In this document: in pieces, positions 10,344-63,985 of the stretch | How positions within the stretch are numbered: the first letter of the stretch is position 1 | How the letters are laid out: each line of letters opens with the position of its first letter | Origin: Octopus vulgaris | Taxonomy: Eukaryota | Direction: 5' to 3' | Assembly: GCA_951406725.2 (NCBI GenBank) | Contig: OX597826.1 | Coordinates: 8,246,001 to 8,310,000 of the forward strand | DNA: 64,000 nucleotides | Notes under the pieces: generated by a model | Told to the model about the DNA's origin: nothing | The model's database searches: none | The model's input: only the letters and a program-made list of their open reading frames with translations | Program-made: the position numbers and the translations under genes

Positions 10344-10780
10344 TATATATACATATATATATATACATATATATGTATGTATATGCGTCCTGTTTCTGTT
10401 TTTGTCCTCCAGAAGATCAGTAATTTTGAGGGAAGGGAGTTATTCGATACTACTGACCACAGTAATTCACCGGTACTCTGTTTTATCAACCCCAAGAAGG
10501 ATAAAAGGCAAAATTGACCTCGGTGTGCGATTTGAACTTAGAATGTAAAGAACCGGAGAAAAAGTCACTATCTAACACCAACATCTTCATCCGCTGGTCA
10601 GTCACGTACCTTCTGAACAGGACTTGATGTGGTAGAAAGAACAGCCATCTTGCCTTCAAGCAAACACTAAAATATGGGAGATAACGTAGATGGAATGACT
10701 ATGAAAGGCGGGATGGGCATGAAATTTGTCCAGAGGTTGGCTAAAGACAGTATAAACAGTAATGAAATAGCAAGCAATAC

Positions 10781-11726: not shown

Positions 11727-12061
11727 AAAGTAAAGAACCCCTTCGGTCATGAATGACCATGGGATTGCACCTAGAAAGTTACCCTCCTAGACACAAGTCC
11801 GGGCAATGTTGTTTATGGAAGGCCAGCAGTCGCCCATGCATACCAGCCTCCCCTCTCCACGCCACCAGTGTTATCCAAGGGAGAGACAAAGGTCGATACA
11901 GCTTGGCACCAGTGACGTCGCAACTCATTTCTACAGCTGAGTGAACTGGAGCAACGTGAAATAAAGTGCCTTGCTCAAGAACACAACACGCAGCCCGGTC
12001 CGGGATTAGAGCTCATAACCTCACGATCGTAAGCTCGACGCTCTAACCACTGAGCCATGCG
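11727..12061 (-). mobile_element. SINE family D, full length
   Basis: Minus strand starts gcatggctcagtggttagagcg (A box) and is collinear with 2110-2430. Tail is ctttacttt. Confidence 0.92.
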
Positions 12062-13614: not shown

Positions 13615-14233
13615 TCTTTTCTACTCTAGGAACAAGACCCGAAATTTTTGTAGAAGGGGGCCAGTCGATTAGATCGGCCACAGTACGCATATGGTACTTA
13701 ATTTATCGTTCCGTGAAAGGATGAAAGGCCAAGTCGAACCTCGGCGAAATTTGAACTCAGAACGTAACGGCAGACGAAACATCGCTAAGGCTTTCGCCCG
13801 ACGTGCTAACATTTCTTATTTATTTATTGCCCACAAGGGGCTAAACATTGAGGGTACAAACAAGGACAAACAAAGGGATTAAATCGATTATATCGACCCC
13901 AGTGCGTAACTGGTACTTAATTTATCGACCCCGAAAGGATGAAAGGCAAAGTCGACCTCGGCGGAATTTCAACTCAGAACGTGACGGCAGACGAAATACC
14001 TATTTCTTTACTATCAACAAGTGGCTAAACACAGAGAGATCAAACAAGGACAGACAAACGGATTAAGTCGATTATATCGACCCCAGTGTGTAACTGGTAC
14101 CTAATTTATTGACCGCGAAAGGATGAAATGTAAAGTAGACCTCGGGGGAATTTGAACTCAGAGCATAAAGATAGACGAAATACCGCTAAGCATTTCGCCC
14201 GGCGTGCTAACGGTTCTGCCAGCTCACCGCCTT
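13615..14233 (-). mobile_element. SINE family C, three-module form
   Basis: Three copies of the aaaggatgaaa..aagtcgacctcggcggaatttgaactcaga module (near 13716, 13934, 14118), two linkers (ggctaaaca..caaacaaggaca), head at ~14200-14233, tail at 13615-13660. Confidence 0.9.
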
Positions 14234-16042: not shown

Positions 16043-16408
16043 GATTTTTATTATTTTTAACTTGGTATTAATGTGTTTAATTAATATAATTTATCCATCA
16101 TTTAGTTAATAGTTTTACCGACTTTTAACCATTACAAGAAATTTTACCGATAATTTAACCTATACAACCCAATATTAAAGAATCTAATATAATCTTACCA
16201 CCATTTAACTATTGCAGTTATACAATTTAACTATTGCAGTTATATTTCAACCAGTTCAACTTGGTATTAAGCCATCTACATTTTACCACCGTTTAGCTAA
16301 CGTAAATTTTCCAACAATTTAACGAATATTACTTCACTAAAATATGGTACTGATTTGCTTAACTAATATCCTTTCATTCCATGAAACTGTCAGTTTTAAC
16401 AATTATTA

Positions 16409-16746
16409 CCACATTTGATGGCCTATAAGACGCACCTTTTGTTATTATTTTTACCCAAAAACGGCTTTAAAAATACCCTTGCGTCCAATGCACTCAGTGT
16501 TGGCTCAAAACGGCATGTATGTTTGCAAAAGGTGTGCTGCCATCTATCGGTGAACAATCACCCACGGTATGTTAATATCGAATGTGGATGCAATAAATTG
16601 CTTATAATTACCGGTAATAACATAAAATTATACAGGTAAGTGGAGAAATTAAAACATTATTTTAGAGGTAATTTATTTTACAAAAGTATAGCCTAGGCTA
16701 GGCTGCGTCCTATGCACACGTGCATCTTATAGGCCATCAAATACGG
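16409..16746. mobile_element. Non-autonomous Tc1/mariner-superfamily MITE (Tc2/pogo-like CCGTA termini)
   Basis: 27-bp TIRs ccacatttgatggcctataagacgcac (16409-16435) and gtgcatcttataggccatcaaatacgg (16720-16746), 3 mismatches, with TA on both flanks. No ORF. Confidence 0.85.
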
Positions 16747-16944
16747 TAATTAATTAATGTTATTTAGGCTAAAATAATAAGGACGAGGACGATGACATTT
16801 ATTGCTATTTAATATATAAAATTTTTTATAGCTGTCATACTCAATGTGTGCTGGCTTATGAATTTATTAACCCAGTTTTCTAGCGATGATTATTAATTAA
16901 CATCTTCAAAGTAATGCGTACGCAGTACTTCTTGCATGAATTAA

Positions 16945-17308
16945 TTAACTTCCAACCACAGAAAGTAACTTAGGTTTTAGGGTTAGGGTTAGGTTTAGGG
17001 TTAGGGTTAGGGATAAGGTTTTAAGATTAGGTTTAATGTTGTCATAAATCACTGACAAACGAAATATACATCCCGGAAGTTCCTGTTGACAAACAACAGC
17101 AGTAATTTTATTCAGCTGAATACACATCATTGATTGGTTGAAATTACCGAAATACGACAACTTTAACGTGAAATAACTTCCTAAATATAAGCTTTTCTCA
17201 AAAACGCTAAGAGTAAAAGATGTTTTATATGGCACATTCTACCAGTGAACGAAGTTTGAAGGTGCTTAGTTACAAAAATTATTTTTTTTAAATCTGTCAA
17301 TCAAAAGG
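16945..17308 (+). mobile_element. Older relative of the adjacent TTAGGG-containing element
   Basis: (TTAGGG)-like run at 16970-17035, then tgattggttgaaatt, aaaagatgttttata..acattctaccagt and ttagttac in the same order as in 17313-17832. Confidence 0.7.
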
Positions 17309-17312
17309 TAAA

Positions 17313-17832
17313 GATCTTTTCGGTTTGAACGGCAGTTTTTTCTAGCGCTGTCATATGAAATTGCCACCCATAATTATGAAATTGTCACCCATAATTATGA
17401 AATTGCCACCCATAATTATGAAATTGTCACCCATAATTATGAAATTGTCACCCATAATTATGACTCTAGTATCGATCTATTGCATTTCAATCTGTTTTAG
17501 GGTTATGGTTAGTTAGGGTTGGTTAGGGTTAGGGGTGGGTGAATGGTATCTTTTTTTCTTCACAAATGTAAATAAACCCAATCTGTTTCTTAAACGAGGG
17601 ACATATTCATACGGCACAGAATGTTTTCACCTCAAATAGACGTCAGTGATTGGTTGAAATTGCAGAAATTGAAGAAAAAAAAAACAACAAATATCTTACA
17701 AACTATAGAATTTTCTCAATAAAGCCAAAAGAAAAAGATGTTTTATAAATACATTCTACCAGTATACAAAGTTTAAAATTTTTTAGTTACCTAGAAATTA
17801 TGTTAAAAACTGCCTGTCAAACCGAAAAGATC
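17313..17832. mobile_element. MITE with 28-bp TIRs and internal telomere-like repeats
   Basis: TIRs gatcttttcggtttgaacggcagttttt (17313-17340) and aaaaactgcctgtcaaaccgaaaagatc (17805-17832), 2 mismatches. TTAGGG-like run at ~17497-17539. No clear TSD; superfamily unassigned. Confidence 0.85.
17354..17463. repeat. 21-bp minisatellite, 5.2 copies
   Basis: Unit tatgaaattg(c/t)cacccataat at 17354, 17375, 17396, 17417 and 17438. Confidence 0.97.
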
Positions 17833-18834: not shown

Positions 18835-19763
18835 CCTTTAGTTTTCTCATATTTTGTCTGTCCAAATGATTTTGAAAACTGCAGAATAAATGGTTATGAG
18901 ATGGGACAATGTCCGGCGAATATGGTGGGTGGGGTATTGTTTCTCATTCAAACTGCTTCAGTCTTTGGAATGTCATCCTCGCTATATGTAGCCAAGCATT
19001 ATCCTGATGGAAGAACACCTTTCGTCTTGAAGCCAAAGATGATCGTTTTTCCTTCTAGCACTGACTTAAGCCACTCAAGCTGTGCGCAGTATATCTCCCT
19101 TGTTATCGTTTGGTTTGGGTTTAAAGGTTCAAAGCGGACTAAACCTTTCATATCCCACCAAACATATAACAATACCTAACGTGGTTGAAAACCTTTTTTA
19201 CCCTGGGGTCTCGGTGTTTCTCCTTTCCCTACCCACTGTCTTCGACGTTTGACATTTTTATAGAGAATCCATTCGATAAATGGTTGAATGACCAAATCCA
19301 AGCTTCTCTACTAGTTCCTCAAAAGTTACGATGAGATTTTGTTCCACCAGGGATCGCAGCACGTCCTAGTCCAGCTCCACAGATTTTCCAGGGCGAGGCT
19401 TTTCTTCTAGGCTGTAGTTTAGGGCTCGGAATTTCTGGAACCTCTGTTGACACTGGCTTACGTTCCTTGTCTGATCCCCAAATACTGCATTAATATTCCT
19501 CGCACTTTCCATTGCGTTGTTGCCTTTATTGAACTCATAAAGCAAAATATGCCGAATATGCTCCTTTGTCACTTATATTATAGCTTTGAAAAAATAACTA
19601 TTAAAACCAAGCTGCACTCTTCAGAACTTGTATTAAGAATTACCACAAGGTAAAATTACTACCTGCTTTTATGGTAAGTTGATCTTGGTAGTTTATCCCG
19701 TCCCTCTCCTACTTTTAGTTGATGCAATTGAAAGAGCCGCATTATTTGTGCGATGACCCAATA
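18835..19763 (-). mobile_element. Decayed mariner transposon (transposase pseudogene, internally deleted)
   Basis: Minus-strand frames give HIRHILLYEFNKGNNAMESARNINAVFGD..FQKFR..YSLEEKPRPG (HTH), WILYKNVKRRRQW, VWWDMKG, FFHQDNAWLH and HPPYSPDIVPS, with stops and frameshifts. TIR-like tattgggtcatcgcacaaataatgcgg at 19737-19763; the other TIR was not found. Confidence 0.93.
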
Positions 19764-27680: not shown

Positions 27681-28578
27681 TACACAGATACATATTGTGT
27701 CTACGGGTGCGTAGGTAAGTGTGCATAAAGCAACAATTTATCTGCTTCTTTCTGAAGACTTTCAATATCCATGCGCATAGACACAAACAAACAGGCGCGT
27801 GCATATATTTCAAAATATATTTAAAAACACGACTGTTTCTCGCGTTGTTTATTTTTGTTGGTTTTTGTCTTTTGTTTTTCCAGTTATCTTATATTTTCAT
27901 GATAATTTCTTGCAGTTTGACGTCCCTATTATACACTTACAGCGAGGTGAATTTGAAAATCTCTACAAAATACAAAATTAAAAGAAAGCTTTGGAGTAAA
28001 ATATGAGCAAACAACACAATTATCGTTTAAGCCTACACAGAATTCCTTACAAAATAAGCGATTAATAACTGAAATAAGTAATGTTAAAGGTATAGAACGA
28101 TGCGAAAATAAACTTACAAATAGCATCAGCTAAATGTAAGCAAATCAAGAGCAAAAAGAAATACTTCCTAGCTGGTGAGATAAAATCCCAAATGTCGAAA
28201 GCTCAAATTCCGCCGGAAATGTCAGCACCAATTATGATGGCTGCTCTAATATGATGTGACAGCACCTAGGGAAAAACATGACGTATTTCACTTTCAAAAT
28301 GTGACTGTAAAACTGCAAGGTACTCATGCAAAAATGTGCGAAACCCGTAACAGAAAGCTGAAATCGCAACACGGTCGTATTTATAAAACATGTTTAAAAG
28401 AAAAGCTGTGTTTTCGATATACAATTATGTACGAGTGTATGATACGGTCTGCCTTTCTGTGTGTACACGATTTGTATAGAGACCATGACAAGCAGCTTCG
28501 TTACTCAGTGACTATATAAATATTTCACTGTTATATGTATTGTGTTATCTCTTCTTTTCCCTTATAATTTACATTACA

Positions 28579-28937
28579 CTAGCACTATGACCCGGCATCG
28601 GCGGGTCATAGTGCTAGTTCATGCATATACAGCTGCGTGTGTGCGCACATACACGCGAGTACTGTCCAAATCTCCGACCAATCACATACAGCTAACTGGC
28701 ATTCAATTGGCGTATCAAGTTTCAGGAATTTTGATTGGGTTTTGGATACAAAATTCACAAAAAAAGTCACTTCTATTGATTTTTTAATGGCTTTGCGGGG
28801 TGACTGGGGAAATGTTCACGACCACTCTTGAACGGCTTTGAATGATCATAGAAAGTGGGAGCCCTCTAACTGAACAATTGTGGATTTGTATAAAGGACAC
28901 ACACACACACAGACCTTTTGCCGTTTATATATAGAGA
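28579..28937 (-). mobile_element. Non-autonomous Helitron
   Basis: Minus strand begins a|TCtctatatataaa (28937), carries a short (TG)n, and ends with a GC-rich hairpin gacccg..cgggtc followed by atagtgCTAG|t (28579). This gives 5'-TC, 3'-CTAG, a subterminal hairpin, insertion between A and T, and no TSD. Confidence 0.8.
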
Positions 28938-31971: not shown

Positions 31972-32188
31972 GTATATAATTTCTCAATTGTTGACAAAAT
32001 AAGCGGGTCGACACATATTTGATATCTTGGTATATTTTCTGAACCGAATTTTTAATGCTAGTTTTAGTTTCCTACAAAAAAACATTTCCTTTTCATAATG
32101 CAATATCGGTTTTTTCAACAAGAACAACACGCCTGAAACAGGTGTAGTTAACCTCAAACCATTTGTGTTTTCTCTCTATACGTACATG

Positions 32189-32414: not shown

Positions 32415-32791
32415 AGAGAGAGAGAGAAGCAATTGCAGATGCAGCATGGAATTTTGTCAGTGAAGAGATCGCGGTCTCAAAGCGATGAAAATATTTTGGC
32501 AAATTAAATTTAAATGTTGAAGTGAATCTAACAGTTTTTGTGTTTTTCTTAAATGGCTTATAAGCACCGTCATCGCTGCAATAGTTTTCGTTCCAGCACA
32601 CGATCTCAGATCAGGTCACTTGCTATGCAAGTACTTCTCCGTAATAATATATATGTATATATATTATATTAGAGATAAAACCACTATTAGGCAAATCATA
32701 CAATGAAAAACGTGTAAGCCAATACATAAGATTAATTCATTTATATTATTTAAATATATATCAAAATTATTAAAAAAGATAATTAATATAA

Positions 32792-32855
32792 CACTACGAT
32801 CGTTTCATGGCTGTCCAATTCTTAAAATTTTCGAGTTACAGTCATTCTTCAGGTG
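32792..32855 (-). ncRNA. Type I hammerhead ribozyme motif (left arm)
   Basis: Reverse complement of 32903-32966. Confidence 0.7.
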
Positions 32856-32902
32856 GTTTAAATATTTATCTTGGCGAGGTTTAATCAATTAAATATTTAA
32901 AC

Positions 32903-32966
32903 CACCTGAAGAATGACTGTAACTCGAAAATTTCAAGAATTGGACAGCCATGAAACGATCGTAGTG
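32903..32966 (+). ncRNA. Type I hammerhead ribozyme motif (right arm)
   Basis: cac-CTGAAGA-atgactgt..acagccat-GAAAC-gatc-GTA-gtg: helix I cac/gtg, helix II atgactgt/acagccat, minimal helix III with palindromic acgatcgt. Predicted cleavage after 32963. Confidence 0.72.
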
Positions 32967-33176
32967 TTATATTAATTATCTTTTTTAATAATTTTGATAT
33001 ATATTTAAATAATATAAATGAATTAATCTTATGTATTGGCTTAAGTTTTTCATTGTATGATTTGCCTAATAGTGGTTTTATCTCTAATTTAATATAATAT
33101 AATATTTTACTATAAAATTGGATTCAATCCTAAATCTGATTTTTCCCTGTAAGTTTAGATTTATTCCCTAATATTT

Positions 33177-33223
<47 letters not shown>

Positions 33224-44071: not shown

Positions 44072-44149
<78 letters not shown>

Positions 44150-44363
44150 AATAAATATTAAGGAATAAATCCAAACTTACAGGGAAAAATGAGATTTAGG
44201 ATTGAATCCAATTTTATAGTCAAATATTATATTATATTAAATTAGAGACAAAACCACTATTAGGCAAATCATACAATGAAAAACTTAAGCCAATACATAA
44301 GATTATTTAATTTATATTATTTAAATATATAACAAAATTATTAAAAAAATATAATTAATATAT

Positions 44364-44427
44364 CACTACGATCGTTTCATGGCTGTTAATTTCTTTAAAT
44401 TTTCGAGTTACAGTCATTCATCAGGTG
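44364..44427 (-). ncRNA. Type I hammerhead ribozyme motif (left arm)
   Basis: Reverse complement of 44465-44528. Confidence 0.75.
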
Positions 44428-44464
44428 GTTTAAATATTTATCTCGCCAAGATAAATATTTAAGC

Positions 44465-44528
44465 CACCTGATGAATGACTGTAACTCGAAAATTTAAAGA
44501 AATTAACAGCCATGAAACGATCGTAGTG
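44465..44528 (+). ncRNA. Type I hammerhead ribozyme motif (right arm)
   Basis: cac-CTGATGA-atgactgt..acagccat-GAAAC-gatc-GTA-gtg has the canonical CUGAUGA/GAAA/UH core. Predicted cleavage after 44525. Confidence 0.78.
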
Positions 44529-44659
44529 ATATATTAATTATATTTTTTTAATAATTTTGTTATATATTTAAATAATATAAATTAAATAATCTTATGTATT
44601 GGCTTAAGTTTTTCATTGTATGATTTGCCTAATAGTGGTTTTGTCTCTAATTTAATATA

Positions 44660-44770
<111 letters not shown>

Positions 44771-44932: not shown

Positions 44933-45340
44933 TTATGTCTTTACTACCCACTAGGGGCTAAACATAGAGGGGACAAACAAGGACAGACAAACAAATAAAG
45001 TCGATTATATCGACCCCAGTGCCTAACTGGTACTTAATTTATCGACCCCGAAAGGATGAAAGGCAAGGTCGACCTCGGCGGAATTTGAACTCAGAACGTG
45101 GCGGCAGAAAAAATACCTATTTCTTTATTACCCACAAGGGGCTAAACATAGAGGGGACAAACAAGGACAGACAAAGGGACTAAGTTGGTTACATCGACCC
45201 CAGTGCATGACTGGTACTTGATTTATCGACGCCGAAAGGATGAAAGGCAAAGTCGACCTCGGCGGAATTTGAACTCAGAACGTAACGGCAGACGAAATAC
45301 GCCCGGCGTGCTAACGTTTCTACCAGCTCGCCGCCTTAAG
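44933..45340 (-). mobile_element. SINE family C, two-module form ending in the linker, with TSD
   Basis: Head-module-linker-module-linker. TSD gtggt(a/c)tacattc at 44920-44932 and 45341-45353. Confidence 0.92.
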
Positions 45341-55913: not shown

Positions 55914-56350
55914 ATTCGATTCTTATAATTTTATATTCTTTGGCTGTTGTTCGCGTGACCTTTGTGTTGGCTTACTTCTCAATCATAACTGTTTGAGCCA
56001 TTTAAATTTTTTACATGGTATCTTCAAAATGAAATCAAACCACTTGATATATTTAGAACGCTAACAGCAATTTTCTTCACACGATAACATTTTCAACTTA
56101 CAATGATAATAGTATTTAATATCAGTTAACATTTGCCAAACACAAACGAACGCGTTGAAATTGTCGTTGATGTATTTATGCGTAAGATTTAACAAACTTT
56201 GCATACGAAATCTGATATCTGGTGATGTCTTCTAGTTTCTCTGTTATAGAATTAATACTATTAAAACATTCGCCTACTTTTTATAAACAATCGGACGCCG
56301 ACTCTGAATTGTATACTTGGCGTGCACTCATCACTCCTAACTTACCAAGT

Positions 56351-56830
56351 AAACCAAAGCAACTACAAAGAGCTTTCGCATTCGAAGGAGAGAAATTTAA
56401 ATGGACCCGAAATGTGATAGAAATAGCAGCCATACATCTCTCAAAGAAACCAAAGCAACTACAAAGAGCTTTCGCATTCGAAGGAGAGAAATTTAAATGG
56501 ACCCGAAATGTGATAGAAATAGCAGCCATACATCTCTCAAAGAAACCAAAGCAACTACAAAGAGCTTTCGCATTCGAAGGAGAGAAATTTAAATGGACCC
56601 GAAATGTGATAGAAATAGCAGCCATACATCTCTCAAAGAAACCAAAGCAACTACAAAGAGCTTTCGCATTCGAAGGAGAGAAATTTAAATGGACCCGAAA
56701 TGTGATAGAAATAGCAGCCATACATCTCTCAAAGAAACCAAAGCAACTACAAATAGCTTTCACATTCGAAGGAGAGAAATTTAAATGGACCCAAAATGTG
56801 GTAGAAATAGCAGCCATACATCTCTCAAAG
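56351..56830. repeat. 96-bp minisatellite, 5 copies
   Basis: Units start at 56351, 56447, 56543, 56639 and 56735. The first four look identical; the fifth has 4 substitutions. Confidence 0.98.
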
Positions 56831-56835
56831 AGCAA

Positions 56836-56972
56836 CTTGCTGTCAAAAGAGACCGATAGAATAAGGACTTGGCTTACAAAGAGTAAGTCCTGGGATCGAT
56901 TTGTTCGACTAAAGGCGGTGCCCCAGCATGACCGCAGTCAAATGACTGAAACAAGTAAAGCAGTAAAAGAGT
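56836..56972 (+). mobile_element. SINE A/B family 3' (B) half
   Basis: caaaagagaccgatagaataag..ggcttacaaag..cgactaaaggcggtgccccagcatgaccgcagtcaaatgactgaaacaagtaaa. Confidence 0.9.
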
Positions 56973-58207: not shown

Positions 58208-58271
<64 letters not shown>

Positions 58272-58279
<8 letters not shown>

Positions 58280-58400
58280 TTAGAGATTAAGCCACTATTA
58301 GGCAAATCAAACAGTGAAAAACATAGAAATAAAATTAATATAATATACAAAATATATAAAATATAAAATATTAGTTTGGATTTACTCCCTAATATTATTA
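58272..58400 (+). mobile_element. Family H1 collapsed (internally deleted) copy
   Basis: Outer left end attaaattagagattaagccactattaggcaaatcaaacagtgaaaaac is joined via AT-rich sequence to the terminal agtttggatttactccctaatatt. Lies inside TA/TAGA repeats. Confidence 0.8.
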
Positions 58401-58404
58401 TTAT

Positions 58405-60039: not shown

Positions 60040-60483
60040 TTTTTTTACTTGTTTCAAATATTGTTGACTACAGCCATGCTGGAGTACCCCGTCAAATGAT
60101 CTTTTAGTCGAAGGACTTATTTTTTGTCAGCCTAGAACTTATTCTACCGATCTCTTTTGCCGAACCGCTACTTTACGGGGATGTAATCACACCAACATTG
60201 GTTGTCAATCGATGGTGGGGCGGAGAGAGACACAAAGACACACACATAAACACACTTCATATACACAAATATATATGTATATATGGGTGTGTGTGGGGGG
60301 ATTGAAAGAAGTTCGTTGTATATATATATATATACGTATACCTATATCTTTATGTGTAGCTTTGTGTCTGTGTTTTTCCCCCACCATCGATTGACAACCG
60401 ATGCGCTGTGTTTACTTCCCCATAACTTAGCGGTTCGGCAAAAGACCGTTAGAATAAGTACCAGGCTTACAAAGAATAAGTCC
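60040..60483. mobile_element. Two divergent SINE A/B 3' halves (minus ~60040-60250, plus ~60300-60483)
   Basis: ggttgtcaatcgatggtgggg (60200-60220) is the reverse complement of ccccaccatcgattgacaacc (60379-60399). Each continues outward into B-half sequence. Confidence 0.85.
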
Positions 60484-61380
60484 TTACTAAATATATTAAT
60501 GAGATAAGTACTATGAGACAAGTAAAACTGATCTGCTTCACCTAAACCAGAAAAGACTTCCTTATGCCTTCAAGGGAACAGCTAGCGGCGGCCTGGGACC
60601 GTTGCGTTCTTCATTAATGGATGCGGTTGTATGACAGCAGTAACCAGGCTTTTAAGAGATGAAAAGGCAAGCAGAGATGCTGCGTGACACACATACGTTG
60701 GTCCTGCAATGTATGAAAGAACAAAACACAAGAAAGATGGCCAGGGTCAACAGGACAAATGTTGACCCATGACTAATTGTGGAGAAAAAAATTTGATCAA
60801 ATTTAGGATGCAAAAGAGAAAGATCATCTAATAAAGTACATCGGAAGAAGTAGGGGGAAAAGGGTAACTAATAACGGCAAACCTCAAAATCCATCGTGTC
60901 TGGATTCTCACCAGTAAAACTGCAAAGGTAGTGGAAGAAATCGATTTGCTTTCAACACAAAAATTCTATGACCAGCTTAAGCACCAAGCAACCGAAGGAT
61001 CCAGTCCCCCACACACTGCTGATAGGAAACCTCGCTCATTACAAAATACCGTATTATGTTGCTGCAATAGGAAGAAATGAAGGCTAAAAGACAAATTTCT
61101 AGGGAGACAAAGTTACCATCCGCGCCCGTACACACACACACACAAATACACACAAATACACACAAGCATACACATACATACACACAAATCCACGCAAGCA
61201 TACACCCACACAAAACACTCACACATATACGTACGTACCCACCTACATACATACATACACATTGATGAAAGGCTCCAATACGCGATCAGGTGCATATTCA
61301 CATATCTATCTGGAAAGAATCATTCACCCACAGATTCTTTCCTACTATGTATATATATATATATATATATAATTGTATGC

Positions 61381-62080: not shown

Positions 62081-62116
<36 letters not shown>

Positions 62117-62122
<6 letters not shown>

Positions 62123-62449
62123 ACATTATATAAAAGGGCTTAGTAAAATAAATTACTTTGCCGCATACTGAACTCATTAGAAATAGCAGCTAAAAAACTT
62201 TTTTAAAGCTATTTCTAATACTTAAAGAAAATCTCTCTCATATATAGTGTTTGCTTTAAGTATTAGAAATAGCTTTAAAAAAGTTTTTTAGCTGCTATTT
62301 CTAATGAGTTCAGTATGCGGCAAAGTAATTTATTTTACTAAGCCCTTTTATATAATGTAATAATTTGAATTCGCCTTAAATGGTCCCTTTGCATACTGGA
62401 CACTTGGTGAAATTAATTAATAATTAATTAATTTTACCCTCAATTGTTG

Positions 62450-62452
<3 letters not shown>
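62117..62452 (+). mobile_element. Second fold-back family: perfect 111-bp inverted arms plus unpaired extension
   Basis: 62117-62227 and 62254-62364 are exact reverse complements by eye around a 26-nt loop. An ~88-bp extension (62365-62452) follows, with (TA)n on both sides. The repeat is certain; the mobile-element call is inferred from architecture. Confidence 0.75.
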
Positions 62453-62490
<38 letters not shown>

Positions 62491-63789: not shown

Positions 63790-63985
63790 CGTTAATCTCT
63801 ACACATTTGTCTTTTCTCTCTACGTTTTTCTTTCATTTTCTATCCATTGTTTTCCTCTAAATCCTTCTGACGAAGAGCGTAGACTCGAAACGTAAAAGAT
63901 ATTTCCATTCCTCCTTGGCGTTAAACTAATACACCTGCTTTTGTTCAAACACCTGTCTTCTTTTGTTTTCTATATATAAATGTAC
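63790..63985 (+). mobile_element. Family H2 element
   Basis: Pyrimidine-rich leader, hammerhead-like core, then gcgttaaactaatacacctg..acacctgtcttc..gtttt and a TA-rich end. Collinear with 43888-44071 and 32-195. Confidence 0.75.
63861..63900 (+). ncRNA. Minimal type I hammerhead-like motif
   Basis: atcctt-CTGACGA-aGAGcgtagaCTC-GAAAcGTA-aaagat has an intact CUGANGA/GAAA/UH core and helix I atcctt/aaagat (one mismatch). Helix III is reduced to the palindrome ACGT. Confidence 0.62.

Follow-up and report, generated by a model that had tools for sequence, protein, structure and literature searches.

The window analyzed here, a 64-kb stretch of Octopus vulgaris DNA, is microsatellite-rich non-coding animal DNA with 195 tandem-repeat rows, and (TA)n makes up much of it. 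A palindromic insert of 336 nt (62117-62452) is embedded there in a TA microsatellite. The left (TA)n tract (62087-62118), the presumed target, shares 2 nt with the end of the left arm, and the right tract delimited by the tract scan (62452-62482) overlaps the right end of the insert by 1 nt. Between them lie a short arm (62117-62227, − strand), a 26-nt spacer (62228-62253) that forms a head-to-head junction, a long arm (62254-62364, + strand), and an extension, or tail, of 88 nt (62365-62452, + strand) that is found on the long unit only. The two arms constitute the longest exact inverted repeat of the insert, 111 bp with 0/111 differences, and their pairing continues for 3 bp into the spacer past one mismatch. 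These inverted-repeat and tract coordinates confirm what an earlier note on this DNA had described, namely exact 111-bp arms, a 26-nt loop, an extension of about 88 bp, and TA tracts on both sides. Long arm and extension together make up a unit of 199 nt (62254-62452), of which the short arm is an inverted, tail-less copy of the first 111 nt, its sense strand being assigned from the long unit. The spacer contains short (TC), (AT), and (GT) runs, has no notable fold (z of 0.1 and -0.6), and shows no complementarity to the tail.

The insert has no ORF. Taken as single-stranded DNA, its 336 nt fold with a z of -27.3, which none of 100 shuffles equaled. The window holds six perfect non-simple inverted repeats (at least 18 bp, spacer of at most 100), and the three longest are those of the element at 44 kb of a family that we call H1 (201 bp), of the insert (111 bp), and of the H1 element at 33 kb (44 bp). 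Since the insert sits in a microsatellite, a target-site duplication is unreadable, and the abundance of (TA)n in the window means that the TA flanks alone carry little weight.

Folded as RNA, the 199-nt unit gives a z of -7.0 on the + strand and -5.2 on the − strand, and the predicted + fold has three domains. The first, hairpin A (62261-62306, +), is built of 13 + 7 bp with two G-U pairs and was matched by 0/200 shuffles on either strand. Its mirror copy lies within the short arm (62175-62220, −; self-match 62176-62219), such that the hairpin previously reported in each arm is real. The second, central domain (62308-62401, +; z of -4.2 on + and -2.7 on −), was obtained by folding and is closed by an 11-bp helix with one internal U-G that pairs 62308-62318 with 62391-62401, thereby bridging arm and extension, with two small hairpins inside. 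An AU-rich linker (62345-62372, +) is single-stranded in the MFE structure, and the short arm terminates inside it, at 62364; from this position we regard the linker as a candidate internal start of reverse transcription. The third domain, hairpin C (62406-62438, +), has 15 bp including one G-U pair and scores a z of -7.7 on + and -4.8 on −. The extension had previously been taken to be unpaired, which is refuted by this hairpin inside it and by its 11-bp helix with the arm. The best arm-extension helix was matched by 7/1000 shuffles of the extension on the + strand vs 228/1000 on the − strand, which argues that the extension is part of the element and not chance flank. Linked by this helix, which is favored on +, arm and extension together form one folded unit. 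A duplex test with 0/1000 shuffles was not counted, because the segment had been picked after the fold was seen.

Which of these structures could form depends on the molecule. In a strand with both arms, the pair probability falls to about 1e-29 for the nested hairpin and to about 1e-41 for the arm-extension helix, whereas in a single-arm transcript both form with p > 0.99. The long hairpin thus dominates the two-arm strand, and the inner folds are relevant only to a single-unit transcript or cDNA; the alternative branched folds suggested in the earlier note hold solely for the single-arm transcript and not for the strand that spans both arms. As for the strand, the + fold contains five G-U pairs, of which three lie within helices, and is free of 1x1 mismatch loops, whereas the − fold has one G-U pair and does contain such loops. 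Hairpins A and C, both AT-rich palindromes, give scores on + as well as on −. We conclude, with weak to moderate confidence, that + is the folded strand, on evidence that cannot separate RNA from single-stranded DNA. This strand bias orients the sense strand of the unit outward, like in H1.

Searches for known RNA families gave no candidate for a ribozyme in the insert. Rfam had no match in the whole window at the gathering threshold, and at E up to 10 no ribozyme family was among the 37 and 11 matches of two scans, which were only sub-threshold and of hairpin or miRNA type; this negative is limited by the fact that the Rfam scan also missed the H1 hammerhead and is thus insensitive to long-insert forms. 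Our own hammerhead descriptor, which takes the blocks in any order and tolerates long inserts and the U3-A8 variant, matched 4/4 H1 arms as a positive control. On the insert it found no exact core on either strand, and when one core mismatch was allowed it gave one weak match on + and none on −. A CUAAUGA string in hairpin A (62301-62307) is non-canonical, as had been noted before, and completes no hammerhead in any block order. We rejected a hammerhead with this string as core: a G-C-closed helix comes next, yet the GAAA lies 7 nt beyond the helix and there is no stem I. HDV-like ribozymes are nested double pseudoknots (P1-P2-P3-L3-P1.1-P4) with a catalytic C. A descriptor of our own for them, based on this pattern and run without a positive control, had no match for three loop patterns per strand, and the HDV family of Rfam was absent from the E-value scans. 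By-eye comparison with their known features led us to reject a SECIS element, since the AUGA/GA quartet is 3 nt out of register and the loop has about 70 nt, as well as twister and pistol, for which there were only short look-alike words in the wrong order and no Rfam match. The tRNA search returned nothing, and a bacterial promoter scan, irrelevant to this host, stayed under the shuffle level. The previous suggestion of a different structured RNA is partly supported, by the strong folding of the unit (z = -7.0 and -5.2) and not by any ribozyme in these searches.

The same layout occurs elsewhere in the window. The H1 family has three copies, at 32642-33180, at 44147-44666, and a partial one at 58258-58402, whereas the insert has one. 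Their sequences are unrelated, in agreement with the earlier note: in three comparisons, the local alignment score between the insert and H1 was reached by 47, 103, and 17 of 200 shuffles. Like the insert, H1 has (TA)n flanks, head-to-head arms, an AU-rich end of the short arm, a tail of about 80-90 nt, and near-identical arms in each element. The tail of the 44 kb copy has 81 nt vs 88 nt in the insert. The short arms of H1 end in one AU-rich stretch in 3/3 copies, at equal inner positions in both complete ones, and the collapsed copy at 58 kb has lost its center and kept both outer ends. In the two complete elements, the arms are identical at 197/201 and 199/200 positions within an element and at 186-188 of about 200 between elements. 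Since arms are closer within than between elements, the fold-back was either made anew from a single template with every insertion or homogenized.

The insert is strongly structured and has no core, whereas H1 carries an exact hammerhead core and its units are little structured overall, the sense-strand folds having z of +0.7 and +1.4. The core is exact in 4/4 arms and points outward in both arms. In all of them our descriptor identified a type I layout with two extra nucleotides, a weak stem II of 2 bp, a stem III of 3 bp that needs one extra A and encloses about 140 nt, and a long-range stem I of 7 bp; 1/500 shuffles passed the descriptor, and 6/500 when the core was held fixed. If active, this long-insert hammerhead would be more unusual than the insert. 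Considering that the unit of the insert folds strongly and those of H1 do not, the two are not one kind of RNA. The earlier proposal of a common mechanism is supported by the architecture, i.e., (TA)n, head-to-head arms, AU-rich short-arm ends, and tails of 81 and 88 nt, and by the literature on Penelope-type elements (PLEs).

The insert has a single copy in the window, where BLASTN (word size 7) and nhmmer (--max) only retrieved self-matches, and the second family proposed in the earlier note is unproven. The best outside match (E = 0.017) is an AT-rich sequence of 27-28 nt at 10654-10681. Just after another TA tract, 12 bp (31983-31994, E = 2.6) are identical to the end of the tail, probably by chance. 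Exact patterns of 21 and 23 nt had 0 and 0 occurrences in GTDB genome contigs, and blastn had no match in phages and plasmids; these collections are prokaryotic and silent on the copy number in the host. None of the 142 non-repetitive ORFs of the window (at least 55 aa) matched RT or GIY-YIG families of Pfam. Four Pfam matches were found among them, two to mariner fragments and two that fall short of the curated cut-off. The mariner/Mos1-type transposase fragments lie at 19002-19572 (−) and match PF17906 (E = 2e-17) and PF01359 (E = 7.5e-10).

Among published octopus PLEs, in the part of the supplement of PMC8557442 that was compared, neither the 3' ends of Naiad_Obim, Naiad_Ovul, and Naiad_Omin nor the hammerhead row of Hydra-1_oBim resemble the insert by eye. 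Three 8-mers occur in this supplement at chance-level counts (4, 6, and 2), and nine target motifs of 10-12 nt have two isolated matches in unrelated contexts, in lines wrapped at 70 nt where motif matches can be missed. The repeat library of Bonar 2026 could contain the family of the insert.

Overall, we favor, with moderate confidence, the view that the insert is the footprint of one retrotransposition by a PLE enzyme of the (TA)n-targeting kind and comprises only the 3' end of the element. Such an enzyme consists of a GIY-YIG endonuclease and a telomerase-like RT. The features that point to it are the two head-to-head copies in (TA)n, the 88 additional nucleotides of the long one, and the joint fold of arm and extension, which is better on +; the features against it are that there is no linked RT or GIY-YIG domain, a single copy in 64 kb, no hammerhead core, and a tail of 88 nt. 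Two traits of PLEs are found at the locus, an inverted 5'-truncated copy adjacent head-to-head, with an orientation deduced from the strand bias, and a tail at one end only, on the long unit. PLE families also consist of dispersed copies that share their 3' end and differ in 5' truncation, whereas the 64 kb contain one copy of the insert. The insertion in (TA)n, as in Naiad, Hydra, and Neptune, adds modest weight given how common (TA)n is in the window. The insert does not have the type I or minimal hammerhead present in the pLTR of Penelope/Poseidon, Neptune, and Hydra; it shares the lack of a canonical hammerhead with Naiad, which is an absence and hence not diagnostic.

The literature provides close parallels. 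Craig 2021 (PMC8557442) describes in PLEs an inverted 5'-truncated copy that adjoins the 5' end and a 30-40-bp tail at one end only, as well as (TA)n targets in Naiad and Hydra, and its supplement names such PLEs from Octopus. Arkhipova 2013 (PMC3846280) reports that pLTRs measure 193-218 bp, occur inverted head-to-head, and have palindromes at their 5' ends, and offers a self-priming model. In line with the accounts of EN+ PLEs in these two sources, the insert has a head-to-head inverted copy, an extension at one end, an AT-rich target, and a unit of about 200 nt with a palindrome at its 5' end. Unlike them, it has no ORF between or beside the repeats and no sequence match to the PLEs compared, and its tail is more than twice the published 30-40 nt, whereas that of H1 has 81 nt. 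Naiads have in common with the insert the (TA)n target, the inverted 5'-truncated copies, and the lack of canonical hammerheads (PMC8557442); however, their 3' ends are dissimilar by eye, and the clade is diagnosed by protein motifs (N-terminal GIY-YIG, CxC, DKA). In Hydra PLEs, (TA)n is the target (Hydra-1_Obim) and Penelope-13_HM carries a 5'-truncated inverted copy, but the elements of this clade have a canonical hammerhead, located some 100 nt before the 3' end (PMC8557442). The architecture of the insert is therefore already known for PLEs, and its departures from the published norm are the 88-nt tail and the missing hammerhead. We think that it is a probable PLE-type fragment of known architecture: the short arm would work like an inverted pLTR and the whole like a PLE insertion, with membership in the PLEs unproven.

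Under this PLE reading, the endonuclease would cut (TA)n and on one side the RT would start at the far end of the tail and copy the RNA of the element, thereby giving the long arm. The opposite side would acquire a second, tail-less copy, started or captured at the AU-rich linker, by either a second priming on the same RNA or a self-primed fold-back copying of the first strand. Both copies would be 5'-truncated within about 200 nt and joined head-to-head via the short spacer. The identity of the arms would then result from the use of a single template in a single event, possibly kept by conversion. Double priming and fold-back copying are both compatible with this one copy. In Frangieh 2024 (PMC11167929), both strands of AT-rich DNA were cut and extended by a PLE protein, the tail was delimited by two internal start sites of the RT, and the reaction in vitro did not need the hammerhead. 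Initiation also takes place there at a site without homology to the cut DNA, so that priming at the linker would not have to follow TA microhomology. De novo PLE insertions in Chlamydomonas have a median length of 128 bp (PMC9977147). Considering the predicted fold, the unit would most likely act as a cis signal for the binding and start of the RT and not as a ribozyme. The insert is non-coding and was probably dead on arrival.

Among the other explanations, a palindrome made by repair is the one that fares best, and we consider it unlikely. A break or a stalled fork at (TA)n, next to a resident sequence of 199 nt, would have led to a fold-back and to the copying of 111 nt in reverse, with no retroelement enzyme. 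The tracts themselves would favor such an event, as (TA)n is prone to hairpin extrusion and fragility, and it would agree with the single copy in the window, the identical arms, the 2-nt overlap with the TA tract, and the spacer made of scraps of simple repeats. However, H1, although unrelated, has this layout too; its short arms have almost the same outer boundary in 3/3 copies and its tails are of similar length, which points to a programmed boundary. Repair also leaves unexplained that the unit is flanked by a TA tract on each side.

A non-autonomous DNA element is quite improbable, be it a MITE or foldback extended at one end, a Helentron/HINE, or a minimal DIRS that has inverted terminal repeats and extends on one side. 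The long perfect inverted repeat and the TA flanks are compatible with it, as is the hairpin located 14 nt before the 3' end, and young TIR and Helitron families are reported in O. vulgaris (PMC13282606). Yet the repeat is not terminal on the right, where the arm stops 88 nt before the flank, and a MITE or TIR transposon needs terminal inverted repeats at both ends; the ends of the unit have no inverted match of at least 7 nt, and the whole insert only has two of 7 nt, both AT-rich. As described in PMC4067079, Helentrons need subterminal inverted repeats of 12-15 bp and TT targets, which the insert lacks, and Helitrons have TC...CTRR ends. In DIRS of the ITR type, an internal complementary region matches the start of the left ITR and the end of the right ITR (PMC8969392); we found none in the insert, where the spacer has no match of at least 6 nt to the extension and only a 6-nt TA run in common with the start of the arm.

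It is equally doubtful that the insert is a hammerhead-free small element mobilized by PLEs whose three-domain RNA of 199 nt is either a new self-cleaving ribozyme or a new structure for RT recruitment and initiation. In such an element, the 11-bp helix would keep an AU-rich bubble open for priming of the second strand on (TA)n, which would fix the unusually long tail of 80-90 nt that is common to the unrelated H1 of the same genome. Slightly less plausible still is a small non-autonomous retroposon resembling retrozymes, with a 199-nt unit that is a self-cleaving or otherwise catalytic RNA of an undescribed or variant class and that is mobilized in trans by a PLE. The unit has three well-formed domains (z = -7.0), the + fold contains five G-U pairs (three internal) and is devoid of the 1x1 mismatch loops seen in the − fold, and animal retrozymes have been argued to descend from the pLTRs of PLEs (bioRxiv 10.64898/2026.07.22.740005). 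Like the insert, the non-LTR retrozymes described in that preprint are short, non-coding, and linked to PLEs, but their units follow each other directly in tandem and all carry a type I hammerhead, whereas the insert is an inverted pair without one. Moreover, there are no tandem units here, no Rfam ribozyme family at E up to 10, and no match to hammerhead or HDV-like descriptors. Of the three domains, two are just AT-rich palindromes, scoring on + and − alike, and we estimate that three internal G-U pairs falling on one strand have odds of around 1 in 8 under a 50:50 strand split, G-T pairs being also suited to single-stranded DNA. Finally, an assembly or library artefact, i.e., a fold-back chimera at a TA tract, is very improbable: the arms are 100% identical and microsatellite palindromes assemble poorly (Craig 2021, PMC8557442, on PLE structures), but two neighbors have the same layout with slightly diverged arms, a third, collapsed copy retains both outer ends, and a read chimera is not expected to end neatly at (TA)n on both sides.

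The age of the insert can be bounded loosely. A borrowed rate, 3.6e-9 per site per year as derived from data in PMC13282606, places the 95% upper limit of its age at about 3.7 Myr, and it is in this loose sense only that the description of the insert as young in the earlier note stands; the zero differences in 111 are weak evidence, since they have a probability of 0.19-0.57 at the arm divergence of H1. Cephalopod Naiads are described as inactivated long ago (PMC8557442), and identical arms would fit poorly with the insert being a Naiad.

If the most likely reading is true, the insert is just another truncated PLE-type insertion, in an animal genome full of repeats, and carries little weight alone. 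Yet how PLEs form their inverted structures is presented as an open question in PMC8557442 and PMC3846280, and our literature search, which covered few subscription papers, found no paper on ORF-less fold-backs with tails of 80-90 nt in cephalopods. Minimal ORF-less fold-backs of unrelated families with sharp boundaries are of interest in this respect, as their junctions across copies could tell self-priming from double priming. A strongly folded 3' unit free of hammerheads would be a candidate cis signal for PLEs that lack this ribozyme, and would also test whether the fold sets the length of the tail.

Several other features of the window were recorded. Between TA tracts at about 1853-1985 there are two decayed head-to-head hammerhead cores (1957, +, and 1880, −), 80% alike over 35 nt, a pair that fits the opposite-strand min-HHR pairs described in PMC4209133. 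Two more minimal hammerhead-type cores with a 3-bp stem II, for which we saw no link to the insert, are found at 63867 (+) and 9135 (+). The window has four such minimal cores vs 0-3 across 30 local shuffles. In the 3' ends of Naiad_Obim and Naiad_Ovul given in File S5 of PMC8557442 under the label HHR_half_core, one can recognize by eye a cleavage-site block, a GAAA, and a CUGAUGA, with pairable stems I and III. The order of these blocks is that of type-SGC among permuted hammerheads (PMC10085705), with a stem II that is not clearly satisfied.

The remaining features are repeats. A 36-bp imperfect inverted repeat (16401-16755) is followed by a TTAGGG-like run and an array of 21-bp tandem repeats (16970-17463), and together they may be a composite non-autonomous element. 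A tandem repeat of 96 bp at about 56300-56900 is open on both strands and encodes a repeat of 32 aa. There is also a near-perfect palindrome of 41 nt (28578-28618), and SINE-like repeats at 60103-60491 form an inverted pair that has diverged (73%). A dispersed repeat lies between TA tracts in two copies that are 96% identical (2110-2348 and 11812-12050), and another one has tandem units of 184 bp (13833-14184 and 44934-45300); both are putative octopus-type SINEs.
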